Made by a program: the position numbers and the translations under genes. 64,000 nt of DNA from Gammaproteobacteria bacterium (GTDB lineage: Bacteria > Pseudomonadota > Gammaproteobacteria > HK1): assembly GCA_965215295.1 (NCBI GenBank), contig OZ244045.1, positions 1,581,518 to 1,645,517 of the forward strand, in the 5' to 3' direction. The notes under the pieces were generated by a model. That model made no database searches, was not told the DNA's origin, and saw only the letters and a program-made list of their open reading frames with translations. Numbering within the stretch: the stretch's first letter is position 1; each line of letters starts with the position of its first letter. Positions 1 through 64,000 of the stretch are shown here, one piece after another.

Positions 1-629
1 ACGGGGAAGTGGCGAACCTCGAAGCCGTACTTCTCGGCCTGCCTGTCGAGGACCGGGATCGTCTCCTTGCCGTAGCTCGACTCGTGGTAGAGGTTGGCGA
101 GCTTCTTGCCCTCCAAGTTCCCCATGCCGCCTTCCTTCATCCCGATGTACTTGATCTTCGCCGTGTTCTGGCTCCAGTAGTTGGTCACCAGCGGAAAGAC
201 GTAGGGGAAGACCTTGCCGTTGGTGGCGTCGGTGCGCCCGTACCCCATCGAGATGAGGGGGACCTTGTCGGCGGTGGCGCGCTCGATGAGCCGGTACGTG
301 ATGCCGGTCGAGAGCGGATGCACGACGCTCGCTCCGGTCGGACCCTTGCCCTTGAGCCGCTCGTAGCACTCGACCCCGCGGTCGGAGTTGTACGCGGTCT
401 CGCACTCCTCCCACGTGATCGTCACGCCGCCGACCCCGCCGTCGCGGATGTTGAGCAGCTCCATGTAGTCTTCCATGCCGCCCCAGAACCCGGAACCGCC
501 CGCGGCGTAAGGGCCGGTGCGATACGCGAGCGCCGGGATGAACTGCTCGTTCTGCGCCTGGACGGCCGCGAACGGCGTGAGCGCAATCGCCGCGGCGGTC
601 AGGGACAACAGGCATTTTCCGATTTTCAT
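1..629 (-). CDS. ABC transporter periplasmic substrate-binding protein (Leu/Ile/Val-binding family), N-terminal part; gene runs off window at position 1
   Basis: Absent from ORF track (no stop in window). Minus-strand ATG at 629-627 gives MKIGKCLLSLTAAAIALTPFAAVQAQNEQFIPALAYRTGPYAAGG: signal peptide plus PBP-like N-terminus. Lies directly downstream of LivG/H/M-type genes. Confidence 0.75.
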   Translation of the reverse strand, partial: MKIGKCLLSLTAAAIALTPFAAVQAQNEQFIPALAYRTGPYAAGGSGFWGGMEDYMELLNIRDGGVGGVTITWEECETAYNSDRGVECYERLKGKGPTGASVVHPLSTGITYRLIERATADKVPLISMGYGRTDATNGKVFPYVFPLVTNYWSQNTAKIKYIGMKEGGMGNLEGKKLANLYHESSYGKETIPVLDRQAEKYGFEVRHFP

Positions 630-824
630 TGGCTACATCCTCCCGTATGGATTTCATACAGTTGCGCGCCGCCCACCGGGCGGCAACGGGGAAAGTCTAA
701 GGTATCCGGACCACTGCCGCGAGCGGCGCTCTCCCCGTGCGCCCCCGCGGTCCCGCCGCGGCACCCGCGCGGCGGCGTCATGCCCGGAGCTCCCGCCAGC
801 CCCCTTCGCCCGATCTCCACCTTC

Positions 825-1952
825 TCAGTAGGGGAAAGGCCACTGCCGAAGCTTCTCTTTCGCGATCTGCCACAGGCGGGCGAAGCCGTGCGGCTCCACG
901 ATCAGGAAGAAGATGATGGTGCCGCCGAACACGATCAGCTCGAGGTTCGCCAGCACGTTGCCCGAAAGCGTCCCGCCCATCACCGTGGAGGCGAAAATGT
1001 TGAGGAATACCGGCAGCAGCACGATGAACGCGGCGCCGAGGTACGAGCCCATGATGCTGCCCAGGCCCCCGATGATGATCATGAACAGGATGTTGAACGA
1101 GCGGATGAGGTCGAACGCCTCGGTGTCCGCGTTCCCCACGTAGGTGAACACGTACATCGCGCCGGCGACCCCGCAGTAGAACGAGCTGATCGCGAACGCG
1201 AGCAGCTTGGTGCGCAGGGGCCGCACGCCGATGATCTCGGCCGCGATGTCCATGTCCCGGATCGCCATCCACGAGCGCCCGGTCGCGCTGCGGACCAGGT
1301 TCTTCGCGAGCAGGGTGAGGACGACGACCACCCCCAGGGTCACCAGGTACTTGACCTCGGGGGTCGCGTGCGGACCCGAGACGACGGGGTTGAGCGGCTC
1401 GAGAAAGTCGAGCGGGCCGCCGGCTTCCGCGAGGCGGCCGAAAAGGGTGCTCTGGGGCGCGGACGCGACCCCGGCCGGATCGTAGTTGGTGAACCAGCCG
1501 ACGTGATCGAACAGCCACAGCAGGAAGAACTGCGAGGCGAGGGTGGTGACCGCGAGGTAGAAGCCCTTGATGCGCAGGCTCGGCAGCCCGAACAGGATTC
1601 CCACGAGGGCCGCGAACAGGCCCGATATGAGGAAGCTGAGAACGAGCGGGATCTCGGGCAGGCGCAGGACGAGGTTGTAGCAGGCGTAGGCGCCCACCGC
1701 CATGAACCCGCCGGTGCCCAGCGAGATCTGCCCGGCATAGCCGGTGAGCAGGTTCAGCCCCAGCGCGGCCAGTCCGAACACGAGGAACTGGGTCAGGATC
1801 GGCCCCATGAGGTACTGCGACCCGGTGAGGGGAGGTACGACGCACGCGAAGGCGACGAGCGCGATCACGAACCAGTGGTCCTGGCGGATGGTGAAGATCG
1901 CCTGATCGCTCGCGTACGTGGTCTTGAACTGACCGGCTTCGCGGTAAAACAT
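825..1952 (-). CDS. branched-chain amino acid type ABC transporter permease (LivM family)
   Basis: 375 aa multi-TM ORF with LivM-like motif LNLLTGYAGQISLGTGGFMAVGAY. ATG preceded by GGAAAGAGG. Confidence 0.9.
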   Translation of the reverse strand: MFYREAGQFKTTYASDQAIFTIRQDHWFVIALVAFACVVPPLTGSQYLMGPILTQFLVFGLAALGLNLLTGYAGQISLGTGGFMAVGAYACYNLVLRLPEIPLVLSFLISGLFAALVGILFGLPSLRIKGFYLAVTTLASQFFLLWLFDHVGWFTNYDPAGVASAPQSTLFGRLAEAGGPLDFLEPLNPVVSGPHATPEVKYLVTLGVVVVLTLLAKNLVRSATGRSWMAIRDMDIAAEIIGVRPLRTKLLAFAISSFYCGVAGAMYVFTYVGNADTEAFDLIRSFNILFMIIIGGLGSIMGSYLGAAFIVLLPVFLNIFASTVMGGTLSGNVLANLELIVFGGTIIFFLIVEPHGFARLWQIAKEKLRQWPFPY

Positions 1953-1988
1953 CCTCTTTCCTCGCCTCCTCGCGCGGGCTGCGGCGCG

Positions 1989-7182: not shown

Positions 7183-7393
7183 GGGGTCACCGGGTCCACG
7201 GCGGGTCCGGCCCGTCGGTTCGCGGCCGGGTTCGAACGCATCGCACCCGCCGCCCGCGATCCGGTGCCGGTTCGATCCCGTCCGGCTCGCCGGCGGGCCG
7301 GCTCGACGCGGACGGACCGGCGGCGCCGGCGACAGGGTGCGTCGCGCCGGCCGGCGACACGGAGTGTTGCGCCCGGCGGCACTTCTCCACCGC

Positions 7394-7867: not shown

Positions 7868-7954
7868 TTCGAAGCCTCCCGGCAGTCGGCGCGGCTCGAA
7901 GCCCCCCGGCGACCGGCGCGGCTGCGCGCCGGCGCGACCCGCCGCCCGGGGTCC

Positions 7955-12954: not shown

Positions 12955-14286
12955 TCACACGCCGCCTCCGCCACCCTCACGCTCCGCCGAGCCCCGTACC
13001 CTCTCCCGATCCGCATGGCCGCCGGCCACCGGCGCCAGATCGTCGATCTCCGCCTTCGAGGTCCGGACGGCGCCGGGACGGCGCGCCGACTTCACCCGGA
13101 CCGGGCGGCCGTCCACCACCACTTTCGCCGAAGTGCGGGCAAGCGCCGCCCGGCTCACCTCGTGCCACCGCACGCCCAGGGTGGTGGTCTCGAGAAAGCA
13201 GGACTCGATCACCGATTCCACCGCCGCGAGACCGGCGAGAATGCGTACATGCACCGTGAGCCGCCCCTTCTTGCCGTTCATCGCGTGGCTGGACACGTCC
13301 AGAACGCCGGCGTGCTCCCGGAGCCGGTCGAGGGCAAGCGCCAGATCCTCGCCGGTCTGATCGTCGATCTCGAATTCGCACACCGCGATACGCTCCCGGT
13401 GTACGCCGGCATCGGGGCTGCCGAGCGGCTTGAACGCGAGTAGCCGCAGGACGTTGCTCGTGCCCGGAAGACGGCTGGTGCCGAATCCCGTCCCGGATCG
13501 GTCGAGACGCATCGGACCCGCAAGCGGCTCGAAGCTCGGCGCAAGGTGCGCGACGATCGCGGCGCCGGTCGGGGTGATGCGCTCTCCGTGATGGGTGTCC
13601 TGATCGACGACCATTCCGCGCAGCAGCTCCACCGTCGCCGGCGCGGGGACCGGGAGCCGCCCGTGCGCCGTCTCGACCCGGCCCTGGCCGACGGGGAGCG
13701 GCCCGCAGGACCACGAGGCGCCGAGACGCTCGATCAGCCAGGCCGCGCTCACGATGTCCGCAATCGAGTCGAAGGCCCCGACCTCGTGGAAGCTCACGTC
13801 GTCGACGGGTACGCCGTGCACCGCGGATTCCGCCGCGGCCAGCCGCGCGAACATGTCGAGAGCCCGGTCGCGCACCCCGGCGTCGAGAGCGGACGCCTCC
13901 AGCAGGGTGCGAATGTCGCGGTGGAGATGATGCCCGCGGGCGGGCTCGCGATCGGGGCCGCCACCATGACCCATCCGAACGTCGCGACGCACGACGAGAT
14001 CGCCGCGGGCGGGCTCGCGATCGAGGCCGCGACCATGACCGTCGCCATCGCGCCCGTGCGGCTCGTGCTCCGCGCGGCTCGCCTCGTGCACCACGAACCG
14101 CGATCCGGCCAGTGCGTCGCCGGCGTGATCGAGGCGCTCGACGGTGGCGATCGCGTCGAGTCCGGCGTGCTCCAGGGCCGCAACGAGCGCCGGCTCGAGC
14201 TCGGGCCACGCGTCGAGCACCGCGGCGGCGAACATGTCGCCCGCGATTCCGCCGACGGGATCCATCCGGATGTGCATGGGCGACAT
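12955..14286 (-). CDS. larC: nickel insertion protein LarC (single polypeptide)
   Basis: Start ATG 14286 (MSPMHIRMDPVGGIAGDMF). 443 aa with a His-rich internal segment. Alternative start at 14277. Confidence 0.85.
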   Translation of the reverse strand: MSPMHIRMDPVGGIAGDMFAAAVLDAWPELEPALVAALEHAGLDAIATVERLDHAGDALAGSRFVVHEASRAEHEPHGRDGDGHGRGLDREPARGDLVVRRDVRMGHGGGPDREPARGHHLHRDIRTLLEASALDAGVRDRALDMFARLAAAESAVHGVPVDDVSFHEVGAFDSIADIVSAAWLIERLGASWSCGPLPVGQGRVETAHGRLPVPAPATVELLRGMVVDQDTHHGERITPTGAAIVAHLAPSFEPLAGPMRLDRSGTGFGTSRLPGTSNVLRLLAFKPLGSPDAGVHRERIAVCEFEIDDQTGEDLALALDRLREHAGVLDVSSHAMNGKKGRLTVHVRILAGLAAVESVIESCFLETTTLGVRWHEVSRAALARTSAKVVVDGRPVRVKSARRPGAVRTSKAEIDDLAPVAGGHADRERVRGSAEREGGGGGV

Positions 14287-14380
14287 TGTAAGTCGCACGC
14301 GGACGCCGCACATTCGGGATGCTTCGCGTCGGGAGGCACGGTGCGCCGTCGCGCCGGCCCGCATCCGCGTTCGGTCAAGG

Positions 14381-14630
14381 GGTGACGGGACAGGCTCGAT
14401 TGCGAAGCAGCGCACCCTGCTGGTGCTGGTACTGGTGGCGATGCCGGGTGACGGGACGGCTCGATTGCGAGGCAGCGTACCCTGCTGGTGCTGCTGGCGA
14501 TGCTGAGTGACGGGACAGCTCGATTGCGAGGCAGCAGCGCACCTGTTGGTACTGGTACTGCTGCTGGTACTGCTGCTGGCAGTGCCGGGTGGCCGGGACG
14601 GACTCGCTCGCGAGGCGGCACGCCAGCCGA
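14381..14630. repeat. about 60-66 bp tandem repeat (3-4 copies) filling the larC-larA divergent intergenic region
   Basis: Units begin GGTGACGGGAC(A)GGCTCGATTGCGA(A/G)GCAGCG at 14381, 14447 and 14506; a degenerate copy begins near 14588. Contains CTG/GTG triplet runs. Confidence 0.8.
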
Positions 14631-17633: not shown

Positions 17634-18446
17634 CTACTCGTCCGCCTCCCGGTAGAACGCCGCCCGCGCCGCTTCGCGCCATTCGTGGCAGTCGCGGTAG
17701 CGGTAGGCGTGACGGAACCATCCCCACAGGCCCCCTTTCTCGGTCGGGTCCAGCGTCTCCGCCAGACCCAGCTCCTTCGTCTCCTGCGGCTCCAGGCCGA
17801 GGTACGCCCCGACCTCCTTCAGGACCGGCCCGTCGAGCGCCTGCGGCGCCTCTCCTTCTCCGGTGCGCACCCACATCCGCAACCGGACCGTCTCCCGTGC
17901 GTCCCAGCTCCGCGCGTCGAGCTCCAGCGTCTCCGGGTGCGCATGGCGCTCCTCCGCGCTCCCCTTGCGCGGGATCCGGCTCCAGCGCAGATCGCCTTGC
18001 GCGTTCGTCTCGTACGCCCACGGCTCGGGGTAGCCTCCGCCCCGAGGACTCGCCCGGTAACGGGTGCTCCAGATGCTCGTTTGGACCTCGCCGCCGCGCA
18101 TCCCGCTCCCTTCGAGCCGGAAGGCGACCTCCGTACCTCCCCTCCCCGTGCGGATCACCACGTCCTCGAGCGCAGCCGCGATCCGCTCCCCGCTCTGCAC
18201 GCCGATCCGTCCCACCAGTATCCTCGCCAGCACTTGCGCACGTCCGTCGGCGCTGGCGAAGTGCCCGTAGGCCTGCCAGTAGCCTCCCCACGAGTGGCCG
18301 GGCTCGCTGCAACGGGCGCCGAAGTCGAGCACCGCCCCCGGCCCCGCTCCCTTGCCGAACCGGGTCCCCTGCGCGTGCGGGCCTTCCATGCCGGCGAGAG
18401 CCAGGCCGAGCGCCAGGACCCGGACTGCCAGGCGCCGGATGGCCAT
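17634..18446 (-). CDS. hypothetical secreted protein
   Basis: Trimmed to ATG 18446 after GAGGAG. Signal peptide MAIRRLAVRVLALGLALAGMEGPHAQG. No family recognised. Confidence 0.6.
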   Translation of the reverse strand: MAIRRLAVRVLALGLALAGMEGPHAQGTRFGKGAGPGAVLDFGARCSEPGHSWGGYWQAYGHFASADGRAQVLARILVGRIGVQSGERIAAALEDVVIRTGRGGTEVAFRLEGSGMRGGEVQTSIWSTRYRASPRGGGYPEPWAYETNAQGDLRWSRIPRKGSAEERHAHPETLELDARSWDARETVRLRMWVRTGEGEAPQALDGPVLKEVGAYLGLEPQETKELGLAETLDPTEKGGLWGWFRHAYRYRDCHEWREAARAAFYREADE

Positions 18447-18629
18447 CGGGCTCCTCGTCTTCACACCCGCCCTCCCGGGTTCGGCCGCAAACCGGCGTTC
18501 GGACATGGCGCCCCGCCCGGCGCCAGGACCCGGACTGCCAAGTGCCGGATGGCCATCGTGCCCCTCGTCTTCACACCCGCCCTCCCGGGTTCGGCCGCAA
18601 ACCGGCGTCCGGACATGGCGCCCCGCCCG
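18411..18629. repeat. 110-bp tandem duplication (2 copies) of the RBS, start codon and first 12 codons of the secreted-protein gene
   Basis: CGCCAGGACCCGGACTGCCA begins at 18411 and 18521. Copy 2 ends 4 nt before the polA stop. Confidence 0.9.
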
Positions 18630-21326: not shown

Positions 21327-21528
21327 GGAACCCTTGCCTGCCGGTCGTGGGGCGCCGGGAGCGCGGAGGCGGTCAGTATACGCCCGCGCCGTCCCCGCCT
21401 CCGGCTCGAACGCCTCCGGCGAAGCGCGTGTCTGCGGAGCGCGGAGTCGATCCGTGTCCGGCGAGCCTGGACGGGCGGCGGCGCGTGCCGTCGAGCCCGG
21501 CGCCGGATGCCGTGAGCCGGTACGGCTA

Positions 21529-23556: not shown

Positions 23557-23680
23557 GGCGGCAGCCCGGACCGGGGCGTCCGGTCCCTCCGGCAGCCGTT
23601 GCAGCACCGCACAACGCAGCCCCACACGACATCGGGGACGGGGTGGCGGCAGCCCGGACCGGGCCGTCCGGCCCCTCCGG
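23557..23680. repeat. two copies (88 bp apart) of a GC hairpin element between convergent dxs and ptsI
   Basis: GGCGGCAGCCCGGACCGGGGCGTCCGGTCCCTCCGG at 23557-23592 and a near-identical copy at 23645-23680. Each has a GGACCGG/CCGGTCC stem. Possible bidirectional terminators. Confidence 0.5.
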
Positions 23681-23712
23681 GCGGCGTGCGTCGCGGCCGC
23701 ATCCGGACGCGC

Positions 23713-31336: not shown

Positions 31337-31660
31337 ACCTCCCGTGAGCATCAAGGCGCGGCTTGCCGACCGCCGGGACACGGGCATCGCCACGACCGCT
31401 TCCTGAACCTCCGTGAGCATCGAGGCGCGGCTTGCCGCCCGCCGAGACGCGAGTATCGCCACGACCGCTTCCTGAACCTCCGTGAGCATCGAGGCGCGGC
31501 TTGTCGACCGCCGGAACGCGAGCATCGCCACGACCGCTTCCTGAACCTCCGTGCGCATCGAGGCGCGGCTTGCCGACCGCCGAGACGCGGGTATCGCCAC
31601 GACCGCTTCCTGAACCTCCGTGAGCATCGAGGCGCGGCTTGCCGACCGCCGGGACGCGAG
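31279..31660. repeat. 69-bp tandem array (5.5 copies) that repeats the last 19 codons plus the stop codon of gshB
   Basis: Unit starts at 31279, 31349, 31418, 31487, 31556 and 31625 (partial). Each full unit keeps ...CCACGACCGCTTCCTGA. Copies differ by a few substitutions. Confidence 0.95.
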
Positions 31661-31711
31661 GGCGAGGGCCCTCTCCCGCAACCGCCCGGGACCCGATCCC
31701 GCCGCCGGGGT

Positions 31712-34678: not shown

Positions 34679-36454
34679 TCACCGGCCCTGTCCCCGGAGC
34701 CTGAACCGCTGGATCTTGCCGGTGGCGGTCTTCGGGAGTGCGCCGGCGAACTCGATCCAGCGCGGGTACTTGAACGGCGCGAGCCGGTCCTTGACGAACT
34801 CCCGGAGCGCGGCGGCGAGCTCCGCATCCGCCTCGACACCCTCGCGGGGTACGACGAACGCCTTCGGCTTGATCAGGCCCCGCTCGTCCTCGGCCGCGAC
34901 CACCGCCGCCTCGAGCACCGCCTCGTGCGCAAGCAGGGCGGACTCCACCTCGAAGGGCGACACCCACTGTCCGCTCACCTTGAGCATGTCGTCGGTGCGC
35001 CCGCAGTAGCGGTAGTAGCCTTCCTCGTCGACGACGTACTTGTCCCCGGTGCGGGTCCAGGGCCCGTGGAAGGTGGCGAGCGACTTCTCCCGCTGGTTCC
35101 AGTACGCGACCGCCGACGAGTCGCCGCTCACCCACAGCTCCCCGATCTCGCCCGGCGCGGCGGGCTCGCCGGTCTCGGCCACCACCTTGAGCCGATACCC
35201 CGGCACCGCCTTGCCCGAAGTACCGTAGCGCACGTCGCCCTCGCGGTTGGAGAGGAAGATGTGCAGCATCTCGGTCGAACCGAGCCCGTCGAGGACGGGG
35301 GCGCCGAAGCGCTCTTCCCATCCGGAGCCGATCTCCGCCGGCAACGCCTCGCCGGCCGACACCGCGAGGCGCAGTCGCGACGGCCTCCCATCACGGCCTC
35401 GCCCGCCACCGGCCGATCGTGCGTCGCTGGATGCGCCGCCATCCCGCCCTTGGGCCACGCCGCCCCCCGCTGCGGAAGCATCGCCCTGCCCGCGCGCCGC
35501 CGGGCCGTCCTCGATGCGGGGTTGCGCGAGCATCGCGCCGTAGAGCGTCGGCACGCCGTAGAAGATGGTCGGCCGGTGCTCGCGCAGGAGCGCCATCACC
35601 GCATCCGGCGTAGGGCGGCCCGCGAGGACCACCGTGGTCGCGCCGACGTAGAACGGGAAGGTCATGCCGTTGCCCAGGCCGTAGGCGAAGAAGAGCTTGG
35701 CGGCGGAGTAGACGAGGTCGTCCTCCCGGATCCCGAGGGTCGCCACGCCGTAGTGCTCGGCGGTGGCGATCAGATCGCGGTGCAGGTGCATCGAGCCCTT
35801 CGGCGCACCGGTGGAGCCCGAGGTGTAGAGCCAGAACGCGACGTCGTCGCAGGTGGTGGGCGCCGCGTCGAGGTCCGGGGACGCGGCCGCGAGCAGGTCC
35901 GCGAGTCGCGGCCGACCCGCGCGGCCGGGTGCGGCCGCGGTCTCCGGCCGGCCGGGGTTCCCGGGTCCCGCCGCGGCGGGACCTGGGCCATCGGGCCCGC
36001 TTCCCGCCGCCACGACCTGCTCCAGGTGGGGTTGATCCGCAAGCGCCGGCGCGAACCGGTCGAGCAGCGCCTCGCTCACCACCGCGATGGGCGCGCGCGA
36101 GTCGCGCAGCAGGTGGGCGTAGTCGTTCGAGGTCAGCAGCGTGTTGATCGGGACCGGCACGCACCCGGCCTTGATCGCGCCCCAGAACACCGCGGGGAAG
36201 TCGATGCCGTCGAGCATGCACATCAGCACCCGGGTCTCCGGACCCGCCCCGAGGTTGCGCAGCGCGTTGCCGGCGCGATTCACCCGCTCGGCCAGCTCGC
36301 GGTAGGTGTAGCGGCCCGCGGCGTCGATGAAGGCGGTCTTGTCCGCCCGCCCTTTTGCGAGATTGGCGTCGATGAACTCCAGCGCCGCGTTGTACTCTCG
36401 CGGCAGATCGATGGTTGCGGGCGTCGTGGAGCGATCCACTCGGGCGAGCTGCAT
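34679..36454 (-). CDS. benzoate-CoA ligase family AMP-binding enzyme
   Basis: Trimmed to ATG 36454 after GGAGAA. YTSGSTGAPKG, and GRTDDMLKVSGQWVSPFEVE is characteristic of the benzoate/4-hydroxybenzoate-CoA ligase family. Two Gly/Ala/Pro-rich insertions. Confidence 0.85.
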   Translation of the reverse strand: MQLARVDRSTTPATIDLPREYNAALEFIDANLAKGRADKTAFIDAAGRYTYRELAERVNRAGNALRNLGAGPETRVLMCMLDGIDFPAVFWGAIKAGCVPVPINTLLTSNDYAHLLRDSRAPIAVVSEALLDRFAPALADQPHLEQVVAAGSGPDGPGPAAAGPGNPGRPETAAAPGRAGRPRLADLLAAASPDLDAAPTTCDDVAFWLYTSGSTGAPKGSMHLHRDLIATAEHYGVATLGIREDDLVYSAAKLFFAYGLGNGMTFPFYVGATTVVLAGRPTPDAVMALLREHRPTIFYGVPTLYGAMLAQPRIEDGPAARGQGDASAAGGGVAQGRDGGASSDARSAGGGRGRDGRPSRLRLAVSAGEALPAEIGSGWEERFGAPVLDGLGSTEMLHIFLSNREGDVRYGTSGKAVPGYRLKVVAETGEPAAPGEIGELWVSGDSSAVAYWNQREKSLATFHGPWTRTGDKYVVDEEGYYRYCGRTDDMLKVSGQWVSPFEVESALLAHEAVLEAAVVAAEDERGLIKPKAFVVPREGVEADAELAAALREFVKDRLAPFKYPRWIEFAGALPKTATGKIQRFRLRGQGR

Positions 36455-36684
36455 CGGGCCGTTCTCCGTCGAGAGCCGGGTCGGGTCGGCACCCGTATTT
36501 CTACCACCTGGAGCCCGTTCCCGCCCATCTCGCGCGGGCACCGCTCCGGGACCCCTGCCCCGCATGGACCGGACCGGGTTCCCGCTCGTCTCGCGCAGGC
36601 ACCGCTCCGGCGGGAAGCGTCCTTGGCGAGGGACCGCCGTGGCCGGACTGCCCGGCGGGATCGACGCGGCGGCGGACCATCGCG

Positions 36685-36812
36685 CTCGGGCGCCGCCGGG
36701 CAATCCACTCGGGCGCCGCCGGGCAGTCCGCTCGGGCGCCGCCGGGCAGTCCGCTCGGGCTCAGCCGGGCAATCCGCTCGGGCGCCGCTGGGCAATCCGC
36801 TCGGGCTCAGCC
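36685..36812. repeat. 23-bp tandem array (5.5 units) whose last unit carries the stop codon of the Ldh2-family gene
   Basis: CTCGGG recurs at 36685, 36708, 36731, 36754, 36777 and 36800. GCTCGGGCTCAGCC occurs twice, and the second holds the real stop at 36807-36809. Confidence 0.9.
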
Positions 36813-37829
36813 GTCGATGTACTCCCGCAACGTGGCGTACAGGGATCCCGGAATCGTGACACCTTCAGCCGGGGTGCGTTCCCGCGCCCGGTACCTGCGA
36901 TCGGACGGCAGCCGGGTTCCGTCCTGTGCCAGGACCTCGGCGAAGAGCTTCTCGGCATGGGCGAGCTGCGCGGCGCGGTCGCCGTGGCCGACGCAGCGCG
37001 CGGGGTCGATCGCCATCACGAGCTCGCCGCCGCAGGGCGCGCCGACGTTTTCGGGATCCCTCTCGCCAGCCTCGAAGCTGAACACGTCCCCGATCAGCGC
37101 GCCCGCGAGCAGCTCGACCATCAGCGCGATGGCCGCGCCCTTGTAGCCGCCGAACGGAAGCTGCGCGCCGGCCAGAGCGGTGGCGGGGTCGGTGGTGGGC
37201 GCGCCGTCCGGGCCGACCGCCCAGCCCTCGGGAAGCGGCTTCCCGTCGCGCAGGTGGATCTGGATCTCGCCGCGGGCGCTCGCGCTCGACGCCTGGTCGA
37301 AGACGAGCGGCGGCCGTCCTTCGCGAGGCCAGGCGAACGCCATCGGATTGGTGCCGTAGAGCGGCCTGATGCCGCCGGCCGGAGCGACGTACGGAAGCGC
37401 GGCGGTGAAGGCGATGGCGACGAGGCCGCGTTCGGCGAGACGCTCGACCTCGGGCCAGAGCGCCGCGACGTTGTACGCGTTCACGATGCACAGCGCCGCG
37501 ATGCCGAGCTCCCGGGCCCGTTGCTCCAGCGGGTCGGCGGCGAGCTGCAGTGCGAGAGGCGCGAAGCCGAAGTGCGCATCGGCCTGCAGTACCGCGGGGG
37601 CGAGGTCCCGGATTGTCGGCTCGGCGTCGGGCGAGACCGTCGCCGCCCCCAGGGCCTTCACGTAGAAGGGGATCCGGAACAGGCCGTGCGACGTGCACTC
37701 GTCGCGTTCCGCCGCAGTGACCGTGTCGGCGATGGCATGCGCATGCCGCTTCGAGAATCCCTTGGCGCGGAGCGCCTCCGTCGCGAGCTCGCGAACCTCT
37801 TCGAGGGTCAGGCGTATGCGGTCGTTCAC
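36807..37829 (-). CDS. Ldh2 family (type-2 malate/L-lactate dehydrogenase; Pyr2C/Pip2C reductase-like) oxidoreductase
   Basis: GTG 37829. 340 aa. TSHGLFRIPFYV, NPMAFAWP, ARGEI and LPFGGYKGAAIALMVELL match the family. Confidence 0.85.
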   Translation of the reverse strand: MNDRIRLTLEEVRELATEALRAKGFSKRHAHAIADTVTAAERDECTSHGLFRIPFYVKALGAATVSPDAEPTIRDLAPAVLQADAHFGFAPLALQLAADPLEQRARELGIAALCIVNAYNVAALWPEVERLAERGLVAIAFTAALPYVAPAGGIRPLYGTNPMAFAWPREGRPPLVFDQASSASARGEIQIHLRDGKPLPEGWAVGPDGAPTTDPATALAGAQLPFGGYKGAAIALMVELLAGALIGDVFSFEAGERDPENVGAPCGGELVMAIDPARCVGHGDRAAQLAHAEKLFAEVLAQDGTRLPSDRRYRARERTPAEGVTIPGSLYATLREYIDG

Positions 37830-39271: not shown

Positions 39272-39279
39272 TCCCGGGA

Positions 39280-41006: not shown

Positions 41007-41009
41007 GGT

Positions 41010-41046: not shown

Positions 41047-41060
41047 CCGGTGTATTCCGG

Positions 41061-45900: not shown

Positions 45901-45990
45901 CGTCCTCTCCGGCCTCCGGGCCTCCGATCTCCGGGCCGCCGGGCCGCCGGCGACCCGCCCGGGCCGATCGTCCGCCGTCCGGGGCCTGCC

Positions 45991-46145
45991 GTCGACCCGC
46001 CCGGGCCGAGCCGAGCCGGCGGGGTGGCCGCCGCGGTGGAGCCTGCGGCGCGTCGACCCGTCCGGGCCGGGCCGAGCCGGCGGGGTGACCGCCGCGGTGG
46101 AGCCCGCGGCGCGTCGACCCGCGCGAGCCGAGCCGAGCCGAGCCA
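45991..46145. repeat. 61-bp tandem repeat (2.5 copies) upstream of the hydrolase gene
   Basis: GTCGACCCG begins units at 45991, 46052 and 46113. Confidence 0.85.
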
Positions 46146-46303: not shown

Positions 46304-46702
46304 ATGAACGACTTCAAAGACCATGAGCGCGAGCTGTGGCTTGCGCATGATCCGCGCGTGTACTACCTGCTGTACACGGTGCGCGCCCGCCGGCTCCAGT
46401 CCGAGGCGGTCGGCCACGCGCTCGGTGTGGCGGGACGTTTTCTCGCCCGGATCGGGGCCGTCGCATACCGCCGGATTGCCGCTGCGCTCCGCAAGCGACG
46501 GACGATCGCGCAGCTCCGGCGGCTCGACGACCACCTGCTTTCCGACATCGGCATCGACCGCGGGCAGATCCCCATGATCGCGCAGGGGCTGATCGCACCG
46601 AGCGGCGAGGCGCCGCGGCGGACCATCCCCTCCGGGACGTGTCCGCCGGAGTATCGCGGCGACACCGCGAACGACGCGAAGCCGCCGGCACTCGCCGCCT
46701 GA
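46304..46702 (+). CDS. DUF1127 domain protein
   Basis: RRTIAQLRRLDDHLLSDIGIDRGQI is the DUF1127 signature. ATG after GGACGGAG. Confidence 0.8.
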   Translation: MNDFKDHERELWLAHDPRVYYLLYTVRARRLQSEAVGHALGVAGRFLARIGAVAYRRIAAALRKRRTIAQLRRLDDHLLSDIGIDRGQIPMIAQGLIAPSGEAPRRTIPSGTCPPEYRGDTANDAKPPALAA

Positions 46703-47087
46703 CGCGACGGCGCCGTCAACGGTTCGGCAGGGGCCGGAGGCTCTGCGGTCGGCCCTCCCTCCCCGACCGGAATCCTCCGGCCCGTCTGCCGAAGCCGGCA
46801 AGAACCGCCGCGACCGTGCCTCGCGAACCGGGGCAGGGTCGCTCCGGAACCGGATGCCACGGCATCGCGGAAGCACCGTCAACGGTGACGCGAAGCCGCC
46901 GGCGCTCGCCGCCTGACGCGACGGCGCCGCCAACGGTTCGGCAGGGGCCGGAGGCTCTGCGGTCGGCCCTCCCTCCCCGACCGGAATCCTCCGGCCCATC
47001 TGCCGAAGCCGGCAAGAGCCGCCCCGGCCGTGCCTCGCGAGCCGGGGCAGGGTCGCTCCGGAACCGGATGCCACGGCGTCGCGGATC
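46673..47087. repeat. 214-bp tandem duplication (1.9 copies) that starts inside the last 10 codons of the DUF1127 gene and includes its stop
   Basis: GACGCGAAGCCGCCGGC(A/G)CTCGCCGCCTGACGCGACGGCGCC at 46673 and 46887. Copies are collinear with few substitutions. Confidence 0.9.
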
Positions 47088-51801: not shown

Positions 51802-52620
51802 TCACCCCGTCTTCGCGGACGGGTCCGCGCTTTCTCCGACCTTCGCGGACAGGCCGGCGCTTTCTCCGGCACCACCGCGCCGGCGACCATCGACGGGTCC
51901 GGGCCGGGAGCCGCGGTTTCCGGGCGAACCCAGGAGCTGGTCGAGAAACCCGTCGAGCCACCGCTCGCTGGCGCCCGCGTGGCGCGCGTAGCCTTCGAGC
52001 TGGGTCTCGCGGCCTTGGGCACCGGGGCGGTCGAGCCTCGCCGATCTATCGTCCGGGCCGCACCACGACTCGATCATCTCGCGGGTCATCTCGGGGTGGA
52101 ACTCGATGCCGTACACATGCTCCCGGTATCGAAACGCCTGGCCCGGAAACAGGGCGTTCTCCGCCAGGTGGACCGCGTCGCGCGGGATCTCGAACATCTC
52201 CCGGTGCCACTGGTAGAACATCGTCGGCGCCGCCAGAAACCGCGGGCAACGCCCGGTCGGACGCACCTCGCAGTATCCGATCTCGACCAGGCCGTCCGGA
52301 TGGGGTCCGACCCGCGCGCCGAGCACCCGGGCGATCTGCTGGCCGCCCAAGCAGATCCCGAGCAGCGGCACGCCGCTCGGCAGCGCAACGCCTTCGAGCC
52401 AGTCGAGCTCGGCCCGGATGCCGGGATCGTGGTCGTCGTTCGCACTCTGCGGCCCGCCGAACACGATGGCCGCGGCGTACCCGGACAGGTCCCCGGGCAG
52501 CGTGTCGCCGTGGCACGGCCGGCGGGCGTCGACCTCGAAGCCGCGGGCGGCAAGGCGCTCGCCGAGCTTGCCGGCGGTGGAGTCCCGGCCGTGGAAGACG
52601 GCGATCATCCTGTCCGCCAT
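51802..52620 (-). CDS. class I glutamine amidotransferase
   Basis: Trimmed to ATG 52620. Nucleophile LLGICLGGQ, catalytic EFHPE. 272 aa. Stop lies 2 nt from the convergent ptrB stop. Confidence 0.85.
   Translation of the reverse strand: MADRMIAVFHGRDSTAGKLGERLAARGFEVDARRPCHGDTLPGDLSGYAAAIVFGGPQSANDDHDPGIRAELDWLEGVALPSGVPLLGICLGGQQIARVLGARVGPHPDGLVEIGYCEVRPTGRCPRFLAAPTMFYQWHREMFEIPRDAVHLAENALFPGQAFRYREHVYGIEFHPEMTREMIESWCGPDDRSARLDRPGAQGRETQLEGYARHAGASERWLDGFLDQLLGSPGNRGSRPGPVDGRRRGGAGESAGLSAKVGESADPSAKTG
51811..51870. repeat. 30-bp in-frame tandem duplication in the amidotransferase C-terminal tail
   Basis: CTTCGCGGAC(G/A)GG(T/C)C(C/G)GCGCTTTCTCCG at 51811 and 51841, encoding GESAGLSAKV / GESADPSAKT. 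Confidence 0.8.
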
Positions 52621-56159: not shown

Positions 56160-57686
56160 TCAGTCCCCGGCGAGCGCCTGATCGAGGATCCGGCCCGGAT
56201 CGGTCCAGCCCGTCTCGTCCTGGATGTCCCGGCAACGTTCGAGGATCGGAGCGAATCCGGGGCCGGGGGACAGCCCGCGCTCGATCAGGTGCCGGCCGAG
56301 GACCACGTCGCGCGGCGCGGCGCGGTCGACGCGACAGGCGCGGGCGGCGGCGAGGAAGGCGTCGCCGGCGTCGAAGCGGCCGGCGAGCGCGTCGGCGGTG
56401 GTGCGCCCGAGGTGGTCGGCGCGCGCGACCCTCACGAGCAGCTCGACGCTCACGCCGGCGCGTTCGAGCTTGCGGGCGAGGCGCCGGTAGCCTTTCGCGG
56501 TCGCGCCGTTCCTGATGAACGAGGCCGGCGCAAGGTGGTGCTCGACGAGCGCCGCAACCTGGTCGGTGAGCGCGCCCGGCGCCCGCATCCGCCCGAGCAG
56601 CGCGCGGGTCGGCACGATCCCTTCGACATCGTGCCGGAGGGAGCGGATCCGGCCATCGATCAGGGCAGTGGTGCCCGGCTTGCCGAGGTCGTGGCAGAGC
56701 GCACCGAACATCAGTGCGAGATCCTCACCGGCGCCGTCGCGCGGGAGAGCCGTCGTCGATCGAATCGTGCGCTCCGGGTCGTCCTCGCCGGCGTCGGCGC
56801 CGTGCGGGGACGCCGGTGTCGTCATCGGCCGGTCCACGCACTCCGCATCGTCCTCCCCGGTGCCGTCGCGGCCGATGCCGTCTCCGGCGCGCAGGGAGGC
56901 CGCCACGTCCAGGACCATGAGGGTGTGCACCCATACGTCACCTTCCGGGTGCCACTCGGGGTCCTGGGGGACGCCGCGCAGCGCGTCGAGCTCGGGGAAG
57001 GAGCGGAGCTGGCCGGTATCCTCCAGCACCTTGAAGCCGAGCGAAGGCTTCGCCGCGCGCAGCAGCAGCTTCCTGAACTCTTCGAACACCCGCTCACCGG
57101 ACAGCTCGCTCAGGTCCAGGGTCCGGCACAGCGCGATCAGCTCGTCGTCCGGCGCCATCTCGAGCCGGGCCGCGAGCTGGGCGACGCGCAAGCCGCGCAG
57201 CGGGTCCTCGGGGAAGTGCGCCGGATCGGTCGCGCGCAGCACGCGACGCTCCAGATCCCTGCGCCCGCCGTGCGGGTCCAGCACCTCGGCGGTGAGCGGA
57301 TCGATCCCGATGCTGTTCACGGTGAGGTCGCGGCGCCGTGCGGCCTCGGCGAAATCGAGCGACGGGTCCGGAGCCACGTCGAAGCCGCGATGGCCGGGGC
57401 CGCGCTTGCTGTCGCGCCGCGGGAGCGAGAAGTCCATGTCGAGGTCGCCGACCCGGAACACGCCGAAGGCGCGTCCGACCGCGTGCACCTTGCCGAAACC
57501 CCCGAGAAGGGATTCGAGCCGCTCCGCATCGAGGCCGAACACTTCGATGTCGATGTCCTTCGAGTACACGCCGAGGAGGCAATCGCGTACCCAGCCGCCC
57601 ACGACGATGGCCCGGCCGCCCGCGTCACGCACGGCGGCCGCGATGTCGCCGATCGCGGGATCGAGCATCGGGCGGGGATCGGTCAT
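56160..57686 (-). CDS. cca: CCA-adding tRNA nucleotidyltransferase with HD domain
   Basis: GGWVRDCLLG...DIDIE head domain, RRDLTVNS, HD motif LCHDLGKP. About 55-aa acidic insertion inside the HD domain. Confidence 0.85.
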   Translation of the reverse strand: MTDPRPMLDPAIGDIAAAVRDAGGRAIVVGGWVRDCLLGVYSKDIDIEVFGLDAERLESLLGGFGKVHAVGRAFGVFRVGDLDMDFSLPRRDSKRGPGHRGFDVAPDPSLDFAEAARRRDLTVNSIGIDPLTAEVLDPHGGRRDLERRVLRATDPAHFPEDPLRGLRVAQLAARLEMAPDDELIALCRTLDLSELSGERVFEEFRKLLLRAAKPSLGFKVLEDTGQLRSFPELDALRGVPQDPEWHPEGDVWVHTLMVLDVAASLRAGDGIGRDGTGEDDAECVDRPMTTPASPHGADAGEDDPERTIRSTTALPRDGAGEDLALMFGALCHDLGKPGTTALIDGRIRSLRHDVEGIVPTRALLGRMRAPGALTDQVAALVEHHLAPASFIRNGATAKGYRRLARKLERAGVSVELLVRVARADHLGRTTADALAGRFDAGDAFLAAARACRVDRAAPRDVVLGRHLIERGLSPGPGFAPILERCRDIQDETGWTDPGRILDQALAGD

Positions 57687-57878: not shown

Positions 57879-58066
57879 GTACAAGCGCAGACTCCATTGG
57901 CCGAACACGGATGCGACGATCTGGTATGGACGCTGGCCGTGGTCGTGAAGCAGGTACAGCGCGGACCCCATTGGCCGGACACGGATGCGGCGACCTGGTA
58001 TGGACGCTGGCCGTGGTCGTGAAGCAGGTACAGCGCAGACCCGTTGGCCGGACACGGATGCGGCGC
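57879..58066. repeat. 75-bp tandem repeat (2.5 copies) between cca and the aminotransferase gene
   Basis: GTACA(A)GCGC...CATTGGCCG units begin at 57879, 57954 and 58028. Confidence 0.9.
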
Positions 58067-59446: not shown

Positions 59447-59712
59447 CGCCCCGGGCACGGCCCCGGAAGGCAATTGCGCGCCGGTCGACGGTGCGGGCTC
59501 ACCCTGACGCCCCGGGCGCGGCCCCGGAAGACAGTTGCGCGCCGGTCGGCGGTGCGGGCTCACCCTGACGCCCCGGGCACGGCCCCGGAAGGCAATTGCG
59601 CGCCGGTCGGCGGTGCGGGTTCGCTCCGGCGCCCCGGGCACGGCCCCGGAAGGCGGTTGCGCGCCAGTCAGTGGTGCGGGCTGGCCTTGGCGCCCCGGGC
59701 GCGGCCGTCTCC
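59447..59712. repeat. 61-bp tandem repeat (4.3 copies)
   Basis: CGCCCCGGGC(A/G)CGGCCCCGGAAG recurs at 59447, 59508, 59569, 59630 and 59691. Confidence 0.95.
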
Positions 59713-62414: not shown

Positions 62415-62448
62415 GGGCGCGAAACGGACGTCCCGCGCGAGGGGCTGT

Positions 62449-62590: not shown

Positions 62591-62742
62591 CGCATCCGGT
62601 GCCGGGAACGGCGCCGATTCCGCGATCGATGCCCGGGAGCCCGTGGATGCGGTGACGGTGCATGACGGCCACATGGAGGGCGGCGCGCGCCGGAATCCCG
62701 CTCGCGGCACCGGTGGGTGTCCGGACGGCACGGACCCGCGGA

Positions 62743-63495
62743 TCAGTCCGCTGCGGGTCGGTCTGCTGCGGGTCGGTCCGCTGCGGGTCGGTCTGCTGCG
62801 GGTCGGTCCGCTGCGGGTCGGTCCGCTGCGGGTCGCCCCGGCGCCGGCGCTTCGATCAGCACCCTGGTGCCCGCCTCCACCCGGTCGAACAGATCGATGA
62901 CGTCGTCGTTGCGCATGCGGATGCAGCCATGGGAGCCGGGGCGCGTGATGTCGACGTCGTCCGGACAGCCGTGGATGTAGATGTAGCGGCGCATGGTGTC
63001 GACGCGGCCCAGGCGGTTCCGGCCGGGCTCGGTGCCGGAGAGCCACAGGATCCGGGTGAGGATCCAGTCGCGCCCGGGGTGCGCGGCCCCGAGCGCCGGC
63101 GTGTGGCGTTCACCCGTCGGTCTCCGGCCGACGAAGACGGTGCCCGGATCGGCGCCGGCGCCGATCCGGGCGCGGATCACGTGCCATCCCCGCGGAGTGC
63201 ATTCACTGCCTTCCTGCTCGCCGGGGCCGTTGGCGGCGGTGGACACGGGATAGGTCCTGCGCACCTCGCCGTGTACGTACAGCTCCAGGCGCTGGCGATC
63301 GATGTCGATGTGCACGAGGGTGCCGGCCGCGCGAGCGTGTTCCGGAGCGTGGCTGGCCCGGGCATTCGTGCCTCCCGCTTGCGCGAGGGCGCCGTGCGCA
63401 CCGGCGCGTTCCGGAGCGGGCGCCGGCTCCGGGCATTCCGCGCCGGAGGCAGCGCGAAAGGCGGCAGCGAACTTCTTCGAGGTCTTGTTCGGCAT
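62743..63495 (-). CDS. L,D-transpeptidase (YkuD domain) with C-terminal (RPAAD)x6 tail
   Basis: Trimmed to ATG 63495. YIYIHGCPDD...GSHGCIRMRNDDV is the YkuD catalytic His/Cys motif. 250 aa. Confidence 0.85.
   Translation of the reverse strand: MPNKTSKKFAAAFRAASGAECPEPAPAPERAGAHGALAQAGGTNARASHAPEHARAAGTLVHIDIDRQRLELYVHGEVRRTYPVSTAANGPGEQEGSECTPRGWHVIRARIGAGADPGTVFVGRRPTGERHTPALGAAHPGRDWILTRILWLSGTEPGRNRLGRVDTMRRYIYIHGCPDDVDITRPGSHGCIRMRNDDVIDLFDRVEAGTRVLIEAPAPGRPAADRPAADRPAADRPAADRPAADRPAAD
62746..62835. repeat. 15-bp tandem repeat x6, in frame, immediately before the stop codon
   Basis: GTC(C/T)GCTGCGGGTCG x6, encoding RPAAD x6. Confidence 0.95.
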
Positions 63496-63763
63496 CCGGG
63501 GCTGTCCCGTGTGGTCGCCGGATACGCGCCACGGAGCGCCGACGACACCGGTCCATTGTCCGGCAATCCCTCCGGACGGGCCAGCCGGCCCGGGACCATG
63601 CAACGATCGAGCACACGGGGTCCGCCGCACCCGCGGGAGCACCGGCCGCAAGTCGAGGTCCTGTTGGACACGCAGAGGTAGCCGTGTCCACCGCACCCGC
63701 GGGCGCACCGGCCGCAGGCGGCGATGCCACGGGACGGTCGTGGACACCGCGGCACCGGCGGGA

Positions 63764-63990
63764 CGCTTCGTGCACGTACCGAATTTCCGGTCACCACCCG
63801 GTCCGAAGCCTCGCCCGCCGCGGGATGGCTTCGTGCGCATACCGATCTCCATTCGGTGAGCGTACCCCCGGGGTATCGCGACAGGACGCTCCGTGCGCAT
63901 ACCGATCTCCGGTCACCACCCGGTCCGGAACCTCGCCCGCCGCGGGACGCTTCGTGCGCGTACCGATCTCCACGTGGCCGTGGCATCCCC
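63764..63990. repeat. about 61-bp tandem repeat (3.7 copies) running to the window edge
   Basis: C(T/G)CT(T/C)CGTGC(A/G)C(G/A)TACCGA units at about 63765, 63828, 63887 and 63948. Confidence 0.8.
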
Positions 63991-64000
63991 GGCCTGGAAG

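Follow-up and report, generated by a model that had tools for sequence, protein, structure and literature searches.

The question raised by this locus is why short tandem arrays should be so frequent beside polA, gshB, dxs, cca, larC and other housekeeping genes, and whether their apparent attachment to gene ends reflects the process that makes them or the selection that follows. Tandem Repeats Finder (TRF), run on the window (the whole 64-kb stretch of DNA that was analysed), returned 21 rows that merge into 18 arrays, with periods of 15, 15, 16, 18, 22, 23, 24, 25, 27, 30, 59-64, 61, 61, 61, 69, 74, 110 and 214 bp, 1.9-10 copies and 64-100% matches. A direct-repeat search adds four more, at 13929-14040 (69 bp), 23557-23687 (88 bp), 31704-31817 (70 bp) and 36510-36610 (61 bp). 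A third-order Markov simulation of the genome, which served as the null for array counts, yields 0.018 arrays/kb, or ~1.2 per 64 kb, with none of period 40 bp or more. The first-pass annotation was therefore right that tandem arrays are numerous in the window, and the in-frame arrays that it described in LarC, the amidotransferase tail, the L,D-transpeptidase tail and the HD-domain insert of the CCA-adding enzyme all held up when each was checked (Table 1).

Table 1. Tandem arrays and direct-repeat pairs in the window. Percentages are matches between copies; genes were called with an in-house codon-usage caller, for which stops are exact and starts approximate.
Position	Strand	Repeat	Context
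7324..7380		25 bp x 2.3, weak, 78%	intergenic; ends 14 nt from stop of EamA gene 7394-7867(-)
7869..7923		27 bp x 2.0, 85%	starts 2 nt upstream of EamA start codon
8474..8634		15 bp, degenerate, two blocks, ~10 units, 64%	includes stop 8625-8627 of gene 8625-11051(-), a DAO/GcvT-fusion oxidoreductase
13929..14040	-	69-bp (23-aa) duplication, in frame	larC; linker varying in length in every congener
14380..14579		59-64 bp x 2.8, 81%	divergent larC-larA spacer; overruns called larA start (14507)
18400..18629	-	110 bp x 2.0-2.1, 92-95%	ends 4 nt past polA stop; includes start of gene 17634-18464(-)
21476..21518		22 bp x 2.0, weak	polA-dxs divergent spacer
23557..23687		two 43-nt copies, 88% alike, spaced 88 bp	between convergent dxs and PEP-utilising enzyme genes
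31279..31660	+	69 bp x 5.5, 92%	gshB 3' end
31704..31865		70-bp-spaced pair (93%) and perfect 16 bp x 2	same spacer as gshB array; 16-bp repeat at called tonB-like start
35862..35914	-	24 bp x 2.2, weak, in frame	within AMP-binding enzyme gene
36510..36836		61-bp-spaced pair (85%), then 23 bp x 5.7 (88%)	23-bp array extends 6 nt past stop of Ldh_2 gene 36807-37829(-)
45906..46140		21 bp x 3.4 and 61 bp x 2.5 (91%)	begin 6 nt upstream of alpha/beta-hydrolase start codon (45900)
46673..47085	+	214 bp x 1.9, 95%	starts 10 codons ahead of DUF1127 gene stop; includes that stop
51811..51868	-	30 bp x 1.9, in frame (10-aa unit, two copies: GESAGLSAKV/GESADPSAKT)	C-terminal tail of class-I glutamine amidotransferase, 9 nt from stop
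56722..56907	-	69 bp x 2.0, decayed, in frame, 68%	~50-aa insert in CCA-adding enzyme HD domain
57879..58062		74 bp x 2.5, 91%	between cca start and class-V aminotransferase stop
59447..59706		61 bp x 4.3, 88%	between aminotransferase start and DUF3604 gene stop
62738..62835	-	15 bp x 6.5, 92%	L,D-transpeptidase C-terminal tail, PAADR x 6, stop included
63758..63971		61 bp x 3.5, degenerate, 68%	upstream of L,D-transpeptidase gene; alternate copies 93% alike at 122-bp spacing

The window is no outlier within its genome. That genome (4.14 Mb, 69% GC, ~85% coding) holds 951 arrays, which make up 3.65% of all bases, 10.1% of non-coding bases and 2.5% of coding bases; their density is 0.229 arrays/kb (a mean of 14.6 per 64 kb), and 0.074/kb (306 arrays) for units of at least 40 bp. 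For comparison, ~150 loci of other bacteria, sampled at the same locus, were set beside the sister genus and six congeners. The other bacteria (mostly Gammaproteobacteria) have 0.043-0.066 arrays/kb, and 0.002-0.005/kb with units of at least 40 bp, and the sister genus is similar (0.045 and 0.005/kb). The congeners carry 0.125-0.35 arrays/kb, and 0.03-0.058/kb with the longer units, in complete and fragmented assemblies alike. The excess is a genus-wide trait, common to all six congeners sampled. Thus, the earlier proposal of an unusually active duplication process, or unusual retention of its products, is borne out by the densities, but its second half, which placed the process at the boundaries of transcription or translation, is not supported, since array edges match a uniform null (see below). 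The arrays themselves are not conserved at orthologous sites in the congeners. CCA and LarC have differing inserts at one position in different congeners, a case of independent recurrence; the CCA HD-domain insert is absent from that place in three of five congeners and replaced by a different insert in the other two. A search for conspecific DNA found none, the genome collection having one genome per species.

The units are duplicates of native, locus-specific sequence. In an all-against-all BLAST across the genome, 503 of 612 units of at least 20 bp are singletons, and every multi-member family lies within giant repeat proteins. Among non-genic units of at least 25 bp, 233 of 246 have no second copy when compared with the genome by BLAST, in agreement with the earlier view that the arrays are mutually unrelated. 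Native origin is evident from the units that span gene junctions, which hold the ends of both adjoining genes, and from the gshB site, where the congeners have no array and the unit opens at the conserved IEARLA C-terminus. In base composition, the non-coding arrays exceed the rest of the non-coding DNA in G+C (73.6% versus 67.6%) and contain less adenine (13.4% versus 16.2%). The first-pass annotation had set aside CRISPR and dispersed REP/MITE families, and rightly so: copies abut without spacers and repeats differ between loci, only 13 of the 246 non-genic units have a copy elsewhere, and their folding z-scores are those of control intergenic DNA, which also disposes of BIMEs. Phase-variable contingency loci, with units of 1-9 bp, were likewise rejected; units no longer than 9 bp occur in only 38-39 of the 951 arrays, and the window arrays flank housekeeping genes.

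The reading that we favour, with a probability of about 0.7, is that the arrays are locus-specific minisatellites which arise by native tandem duplication and are filtered by selection, throughout the genome and the genus. This account has four steps. Template switching or slippage during replication, partly by way of microhomologies of 3-10 nt, would duplicate a local segment, usually of 15-135 bp; arrays, once established, go on gaining copies; purifying selection, as the statistics below show, sets which duplications last; and the genus would either make duplications more often than its relatives or clear them more slowly.

The first two steps can be judged from the copies and their flanks. 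Partial repeats of at least 3 nt flank 38% of 48 clean young two-copy arrays (null 8%), and those of at least 4 nt flank 27% (null 3%). This flank microhomology points to template switching in replication and fits microhomology-mediated tandem duplication (bioRxiv 10.64898/2026.02.28.708716), although ~60% of the young two-copy arrays are without a microhomology of at least 3 nt, which counts against this part of the model. Adjacent identical copies are present in 20 of 246 non-genic arrays (18 of them with at least three copies), indicating ongoing expansion. With respect to the fourth step, one might expect a defective repair complement, to which the first-pass annotation had directed attention. 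However, mutS, mutL, recJ, xseA, a uvrD-like gene, recC, dnaQ and the Pol I 5' nuclease are all present (sbcB and Ku were not found in the repair-gene search of the genome), and the excess is not explained by any gene loss.

The third step has left the clearest statistical traces. Inside genes, the only survivors are in-frame duplications in tolerant loops and tails, and 102 of the 103 genic arrays with units of at least 40 bp have units that are multiples of 3 (about one third do so among non-genic arrays). Between genes, survival is best where there is no promoter, and arrays per kb of spacer number 1.03 in convergent, 0.74 in tandem and 0.53 in divergent spacers. Copying a stop codon does no harm because the first copy still terminates the protein; in the gshB array, the unit comprises the final 19 gshB codons from the IEARLA motif, the TGA and 9-10 nt more, and translation of gshB takes in the first copy alone. 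Where a start codon or a whole operon junction has been copied, the duplication lasts mainly if the short ORF opened by the decoy start ends at or beside the true start, so that translational coupling is kept and no out-of-frame ribosomes pass over the real start. The start-overlapping arrays include 30 with a period not divisible by 3; in 23 of these the decoy ORF ends between -45 and +12 nt of the true start, an outcome seen in 38% of 20,000 in-silico duplications (p = 2e-5). In arrays that span an operon junction, the period equals the stop/start frame offset modulo 3 in 13 of 15 cases (p = 3e-5); the mini-ORFs predicted there have 22-61 codons, are open and terminate exactly at the copied stop. 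As judged from these reading frames, the predicted mini-ORF seems to restore the original stop/start coupling. In the 110-bp array, for example, a decoy GTG at 18574 would begin a mini-ORF of 37 codons with a TGA (18463-18461) that overlaps the true GTG start of gene 17634-18464(-).

Unit lengths raise the possibility of a different origin. Their distribution peaks twice, at 60-79 and at 100-129 bp, and drops steeply above ~135 bp, and the same two classes recur in pooled congener samples. Such a spectrum is not predicted by simple slippage. The excess might instead come from a distinct, length-limited duplication process, with a fixed physical ruler underlying it; a protein-wrapped DNA stretch or a template-switch distance defined by the replisome could be such a ruler. 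We consider this unlikely.

The divergence of the copies bears on whether duplication is still under way. Of the 90 two-copy arrays just one is perfect, and the pairs most often show 3-4 differences, so that new duplications may be rarer now than formerly; moreover, the class with 98-100% identity is ~2.5 times poorer than the classes below it, and the repair genes tested are all intact today. These data would be consistent with relics of a past burst, for example from a transient mutator state or a population bottleneck, either in the ancestor of the genus or in each species, the unusual rate having since ended. This explanation is slightly less likely again. At orthologous sites each species has its own arrays, which excludes a single ancestral burst, so that at least six separate ones would be needed, and the 18 multi-copy arrays with identical adjacent copies also argue against it. 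The scarcity of perfect pairs can be read in other ways, since contraction of older arrays can also yield two-copy arrays and since a population-consensus assembly, which the MAG-style quality figures suggest this to be, would under-represent young low-frequency alleles.

Native duplication followed by selection also has to account for the positions of the arrays. The claim that most arrays begin or end at start or stop codons was overstated: an edge falls within 9 nt of a called terminus in 7 of the 18 window arrays and in 15% genome-wide. When each unit was placed uniformly among positions not wholly within a gene, the expected genome-wide value was 14.5 +/- 2.2%, against an observed 15.3%, and the fractions within 6, 15 and 30 nt also match that null. 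Anchoring of the arrays at termini is not supported. Stops are overlapped by 101 arrays (92 expected) and starts by 47 (65 expected). The 7 window arrays, the richness of convergent spacers and a small genome-wide excess within 3 nt (9.5% versus 5.4 +/- 1.5%) might nevertheless suggest that duplication is itself directed to the boundaries of transcription or translation, for instance through fork stalling at terminators or coupled ribosomes. We find this improbable: edge density around stops is even, at ~1-1.4 per bp from -60 to +30 nt, offsets to the terminus in the 96-135-bp class spread from -1 to -121 nt, in-frame arrays are found throughout the length of genes, and the frame rules for junctions and starts are possible only through selection after the event. 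The position of arrays at gene ends seems to be due only to selection, which purges those that harm genes or coupled translation; the apparent anchoring results from purifying selection together with geometry (short spacers and long units), and is not a mutational property.

Preserved coupling, along with the sheer investment of 10% of non-coding DNA, could also be taken to mean that the arrays are kept for a function, as regulatory RNAs, arrays of protein-binding sites, ladders of terminators or stop codons, or expression-tuning spacers; regulatory RNA roles have been proposed for similar Borg repeats (PMC9879509). Such a function is equally hard to credit. The units have no sequence in common and fold no more strongly than control intergenic DNA (mean z -0.57 versus -0.39, p = 0.11), array boundaries show no enriched motif, neither terminator-like nor promoter-like sites occur in the gshB array, congeners do not conserve the arrays at orthologous sites, and the transition/transversion ratio between drifting copies is an ordinary 1.8-2.3. 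Coupling that is kept represents harm avoided rather than function gained. Although the genome and most congeners resemble long-read MAGs, in which repeat-prone high-GC DNA might be misassembled, an assembly or sequencing artefact is scarcely conceivable, since the copies differ by 1-20% through substitutions and not indels (the argument already made in the first-pass annotation), long genic arrays keep frame, no assembler can create the junction and start-codon rules, and density is equal in fragmented short-read congeners, some of whose contigs end within arrays.

Among known repeats, the closest are bacterial VNTR loci, or minisatellites, of which the ETR and QUB loci of Mycobacterium tuberculosis are examples. 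The loci used for MLVA typing, as in Burkholderia pseudomallei (PMC1853098), are like the present arrays in being locus-specific, head-to-tail direct repeats that are mostly intergenic, have units in multiples of three inside genes, and are formed and resized by replication slippage, as is probably the case here too. With the TRF criteria of that study (over 30 bp, at least 80% matches), there are 173 arrays/Mb here, versus 70-102 in B. pseudomallei, itself described as having a "preponderance" of arrays, 37 in Y. pestis and 12.6 in B. anthracis (PMC1853098). The present arrays consist of head-to-tail direct repeats of at least ~10 bp, with locally derived, locus-specific units whose copies are in register. 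They are an extreme case of bacterial minisatellites, with a MIRU-like architecture but no shared repeat family.

MIRUs (mycobacterial interspersed repetitive units; Supply et al. 1997) are 40-100-bp tandem units at operon junctions whose small ORFs overlap or abut the flanking starts and stops; they form a dispersed family of related sequences at ~40 loci. The likeness lies in the junction units with coupling mini-ORFs (13-14 of the 15 junction-spanning arrays). The difference is that each unit here copies its own junction and has no relative elsewhere in the genome by BLAST, so these are not members of the MIRU family. A MIRU-like layout, with mini-ORFs chained between coupled genes, can thus come from self-duplication plus selection, and a mobile element is unnecessary; hundreds of independent duplication events stand behind this argument. 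The genome is in effect a natural experiment on which short duplications a bacterium tolerates, and it yields a quantitative trace of selection that favours translational coupling and opposes out-of-frame read-through of starts. Because duplication repeatedly adds loops or tails to the CCA-adding enzyme, LarC, GshB and the L,D-transpeptidase, it makes proteins vary in length within the genus. On the practical side, arrays of this kind fragment short-read assemblies and lead gene callers astray on start codons and C-termini, and they would suit strain typing of this uncultured group. The genus-level excess despite intact repair genes is an addressable question of replication fidelity.

Related tandem repeats occur in other replicons. 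The chromosome of the whitefly endosymbiont Portiera is said to have expanded intergenic regions with tandem and direct repeats, and its instability is tied to the loss of replication and repair genes, dnaQ among them. Genomic instability in Portiera is the subject of PMC3673631; here dnaQ, mutS, mutL, recJ, xseA and the uvrD-like gene are all retained. The genome of Ehrlichia ruminantium is AT-rich, whereas the present one is 69% GC. According to the part of PMC10710844 that draws on Collins 2005 and Frutos 2006, E. ruminantium has many expanding and contracting tandem repeats that inflate the non-coding regions of its chromosome, as do the present arrays, but in a small obligate intracellular genome (there given as 1.3 Mb) that is ~64% coding, versus 4.1 Mb and ~85% coding here, with a full complement of repair genes apart from sbcB and Ku.

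The Borg extrachromosomal elements of Methanoperedens (PMC9879509) similarly contain pervasive locus-specific tandem repeats of independent origin, with units divisible by three inside ORFs, where they add disordered protein segments (compare the 102 of 103 long genic units here), with partial repeats at their flanks (compare the 38% versus 8% above), and with repeats missing at the same sites in close relatives. Borgs differ in being archaeal and extrachromosomal, in contrast to a bacterial chromosome, and their units are A-rich, in contrast to arrays that exceed other non-coding DNA in G+C. Borg repeats are also essentially perfect and recent, making up 0.62% of the genome (PMC9879509). By the Borg criteria (perfect, at least 3 units, at least 50 nt, about 0.3-1% of the replicon), the present genome falls short, with 35 regions totalling 3,451 bp, or 0.083%, whereas its diverged arrays amount to 3.65%.

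Tandem Repeats Finder (TRF) reported 21 rows in the window, which merge into 18 arrays with periods of 15-214 bp, 1.9-10 copies and 64-100% matches, and a repeat-pair search beyond TRF added four diverged pairs (see the table of coordinates). In a third-order Markov simulation of the genome, only 0.018 arrays/kb arise, equivalent to some 1.2 in 64 kb, and every simulated period is below 40. The first-pass annotation, which had counted at least 16 independent arrays, was therefore right, and the number is far above chance. When the copies are aligned in register, their differences are mostly substitutions; the observation of dense tandem arrays is real.

The window lies at 1581518-1645517 of the main chromosome contig (G000:C1), which is 4.14 Mb long with 68.8% GC; the assembly also has a second contig of 5.7 kb. 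Genes were called with this study's own codon-usage model trained on the genome, on which the start codons also rest; it gave 3,138 genes and 84.7% coding, and Pfam matches in the window are consistent with the calls. The genes of the window are ordinary housekeeping genes, including polA, dxs, gshB, larC/larA, cca and an L,D-transpeptidase gene. The sole match in an Rfam search of the window is a tRNA gene located between a DUF3604 gene and the L,D-transpeptidase gene. Two lower-GC stretches match the positions of restriction-modification cassettes that the first pass had recorded, and neither contains strong tandem arrays. Among public sequences, the nearest relatives are uncultured Gammaproteobacteria represented by complete MAG chromosomes, whose GshB is 83-87% identical; the genome collection includes 11 congeneric species, with sizes of 3.4-6.2 Mb. 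A search for conspecific DNA with the gshB product gave no record, and the best aminotransferase match in a metagenome scan was just 85% identical, so the scanned metagenomes contain no conspecific contig.

The genome as a whole contains 951 merged TRF arrays (3.65% of bases), with a mean of 14.6 per 64 kb, and so the window is typical. Arrays fill 10.1% of non-coding versus 2.5% of coding bases. Counted as in PMC1853098 (>30 bp, at least 80% matches), the genome has 173 arrays/Mb; the values for B. pseudomallei (termed repeat-rich in that study), Y. pestis and B. anthracis are 70-102, 37 and 12.6. The unusual density suspected in the first pass also holds against other genomes and metagenome loci (see the table of densities), and the array excess is a genome-wide and genus-wide property. 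In the fragmented congeners, some contigs terminate within arrays.

Array densities in this genome and in comparison sets (congener values are from samples of 50-200 kb)
Set	Arrays/kb	Arrays/kb, unit >=40 bp
This genome	0.229	0.074
Four complete-chromosome congeners, 200 kb each	0.125-0.35	0.03-0.04
Two fragmented congeners	0.136-0.170	0.033-0.058
Sister genus, same family (longest contigs of a fragmented assembly; repeats may be under-sampled)	0.045	0.005
Two other families	0.04-0.08	0-0.010
75 other genomes (mostly Gammaproteobacteria), same gshB neighbourhood	0.043	0.002
79 metagenome loci	0.066	0.002

Two 64-kb bins reach 33 arrays each because of clusters of giant repeat-protein genes. 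Their shared units, all in frame, measure 321-345 bp (corresponding to ~110-aa domains), 21 bp and 36/72/108 bp. The chromosome also encodes four ankyrin-repeat proteins; ankyrin matches outnumber those in the congeners and sister genus tested, although the count is modest, and these proteins may hint at host association but are uninformative alone.

The unit sequences were originally described as unrelated to one another, and this description stands genome-wide: 503 of 612 units of at least 20 bp are singletons, and 233 of 246 non-genic units of at least 25 bp occur nowhere else in the genome. All multi-member families consist of in-frame repeats within giant proteins, and the singleton counts and genome-wide unit search rule out a hidden dispersed family. 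One of the few non-genic units without locus specificity, the 154-bp unit of array A0184, has 19 further copies elsewhere in the chromosome, several of them 100% identical, and probably represents the terminus of an IS or MITE. The gshB unit begins at the conserved C-terminal motif IEARLA and includes the stop codon; in four congeners gshB ends at this motif and the downstream sequence is unrelated, and in a fifth (G011) the GshB C-terminus carries an in-frame repeat, GKSA x 3. The CCA-adding enzyme and LarC each show the same loop with a different insert, or none, in each congener. In the CCA HD domain the loop follows ...DVAA(S/T)LR, and the inserts are independent among species: ~50 aa in this genome, ~90 aa in congener G004 (locus L241), where a tandem duplication spans the flanking conserved EDLALM motif, and a short ESPDE repeat in G011 (L245), with three congeners insert-free. 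The LarC C-terminus of G011 (L250) has an in-frame VEAKVEAT x 2. Together, the unit singletons and these comparisons show that the arrays are recent, independent duplications of local sequence, not inserted elements.

The flanks of young arrays bear on how such duplications form. Among 48 clean young two-copy arrays, 38% have a flanking partial repeat of at least 3 nt (null 8%) and 27% one of at least 4 nt (null 3%). This microhomology is consistent with microhomology-mediated tandem duplication, which has been proposed as the general origin of tandem repeats (preprint 10.64898/2026.02.28.708716). Identical neighbouring copies occur in 18 multi-copy arrays, so expansion is still going on. Of 90 two-copy arrays just one is free of differences, and the modal difference count is 3-4; new duplications may be rarer than expansions or, alternatively, a population-consensus assembly may hide young alleles. 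The first-pass annotation had proposed inspecting the repair genes. Loss of a repair or replication gene was rejected as the cause of the excess for the genes searched: this genome and the four congeners examined all carry mutS, mutL, recJ, xseA, a uvrD-like gene, recC and dnaQ. ExoI and Ku are lacking here, and the same goes for most control genomes; Pol I is the sole protein with a 5'-nuclease domain in the genus and in array-poor outgroups alike. The Ts/Tv ratio of the differences between copies is 1.8-2.3, an ordinary value that rules out a RIP-like or mismatch-repair-deficient spectrum. Structured-RNA or hairpin units were rejected because structure is no greater than in control intergenic DNA, and no convincing motif was found at duplication boundaries (GCCGAT occurs six times, in instances that are not independent).

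The lengths of non-genic units are distributed unevenly: 55 arrays fall in a hump at 60-79 bp and 60 in another at 100-129 bp, 16 lie in a dip at 80-94 bp, and numbers drop steeply above ~135 bp. The 96-135-bp class has nearly always exactly two copies, and higher-order (half-period) structure was rejected for the 100-130-bp class. Pooled congener samples contain the same two classes.

Coordinates of features in the window, elsewhere on the chromosome (G000:C1) and in a congener locus
Feature	Location	Details
Diverged repeat pair	window 13929-14040	69-bp spacing
Diverged repeat pair	window 23557-23687	88-bp spacing
Diverged repeat pair	window 31704-31817	70-bp spacing
Diverged repeat pair	window 36510-36610	61-bp spacing
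Examples of unit-length classes	window 18410-18629, 45990-46140, 57879-58062, 59447-59706	
Decoy GTG after polA	window 18574	
Gene with the overlapped true GTG	window 17634-18464	
CCA insert	window 56722-56907	
Lower-GC stretches	window 27950-30250, 38996-41060	62-64% GC in 4-kb windows
tRNA gene	window 62328-62414 (-)	
Array A0184	G000:C1:794961	
Clean operon-junction duplications	G000:C1:276200-276414, 1538339-1538580, 2352791-2353039, 3903516-3903770	
Giant repeat-protein gene clusters	G000:C1 ~106-137 kb, 551-555 kb, 1.84-1.87 Mb, 2.01-2.08 Mb, 2.51-2.54 Mb, 4.06-4.08 Mb	
Ankyrin-repeat proteins	G000:C1:1362524-1368338, 1986488-1987432, 600402-600977	open frames 379-821 aa
GshB C-terminal repeat of G011	L005 10953-10995	

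The arrays had also been proposed to be anchored at gene termini, which the placement test does not support. For 222 non-genic arrays (unit at least 25 bp, at least 80% matches), the null placed the ancestral unit uniformly at its own locus, in positions not wholly within a gene. An edge lies within 9 nt of a terminus in 15.3% of arrays (null 14.5 +/- 2.2%) and within 30 nt in 44.6% (null 42.3 +/- 3.0%), while 101 arrays overlap a stop and 47 a start (null 92 and 65); the small excess over the null is limited to edges within 3 nt (9.5% versus 5.4 +/- 1.5%). Around stop codons, edges occur at an even density between -60 and +30 nt. Of the window's 18 arrays, 7 have an edge no more than 9 nt away from a terminus. 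The positional pattern arises because long units sit in short spacers, and the duplication process itself is not anchored at termini. The anchoring reading is replaced by one of duplication everywhere and survival at gene ends.

Several patterns reveal this survival. Of 103 genic arrays whose unit is at least 40 bp long, 102 have a unit length divisible by three, versus about one third of non-genic arrays. Per kb of spacer, convergent gene pairs have 1.03 arrays, tandem pairs 0.74 and divergent pairs 0.53. Fifteen arrays span same-strand junctions, their units including the stop of the upstream gene and the start of the downstream one; 13 have a period equal to the stop/start frame offset modulo 3 (binomial p = 3e-5 versus one third) and an intact copied start codon, which opens a predicted mini-ORF of 22-61 codons ending exactly at the copied stop beside the true start. 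One of the two exceptions makes a new ATGA overlap. Four operon-junction duplications are particularly clean; one of them, a 106-bp duplication at G000:C1:276200-276414, lies at a lolE/lolD-like junction whose genes overlap by CATGAGTGA. In all four, the original overlap is restored by a chimeric mini-ORF (37-43 codons) that joins the downstream gene's N-terminus to the upstream gene's C-terminus. Thirty arrays copy a start with a period not divisible by three; in 23 of them the decoy ORF ends between -45 and +12 nt relative to the true start, compared to 38% of 20,000 in-silico duplications at array-free gene starts (p = 2e-5), and periods of 2 mod 3, which give an NTGA-overlap ending, outnumber those of 1 mod 3 by 22 to 8. 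The one example in the window is the 110-bp duplication after polA, where a decoy GTG opens a 37-codon ORF whose TGA overlaps the true GTG of gene 17634-18464. Neither an assembler nor a mutational bias can produce these frame rules, which are survivorship signatures: selection decides which duplications persist.

The arrays are an extreme, genus-wide case of a known kind. CRISPR, REP/MITE elements and contingency loci are all excluded as their identity. In the defining features covered, head-to-tail direct repeats and locus-specific units of local origin, the arrays match bacterial VNTRs and minisatellites. MIRUs carry small ORFs that overlap the flanking stop and start codons at operon junctions; the arrays work alike at such junctions, but they do not form a dispersed family. 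The frame rules also reproduce the MIRU architecture, with no shared repeat family involved. The nearest chromosomal precedent for repeat-inflated spacers is Ehrlichia ruminantium, but its genome is small and that of an intracellular organism (PMC10710844). Borg tandem repeats likewise pervade their genomes, are specific to each locus, keep the reading frame and have partial repeats at their flanks, but the arrays here are mostly diverged (perfect repeats 0.083% versus 0.62% in Borgs), G+C-rich and chromosomal, whereas Borg units are A-rich (PMC9879509).
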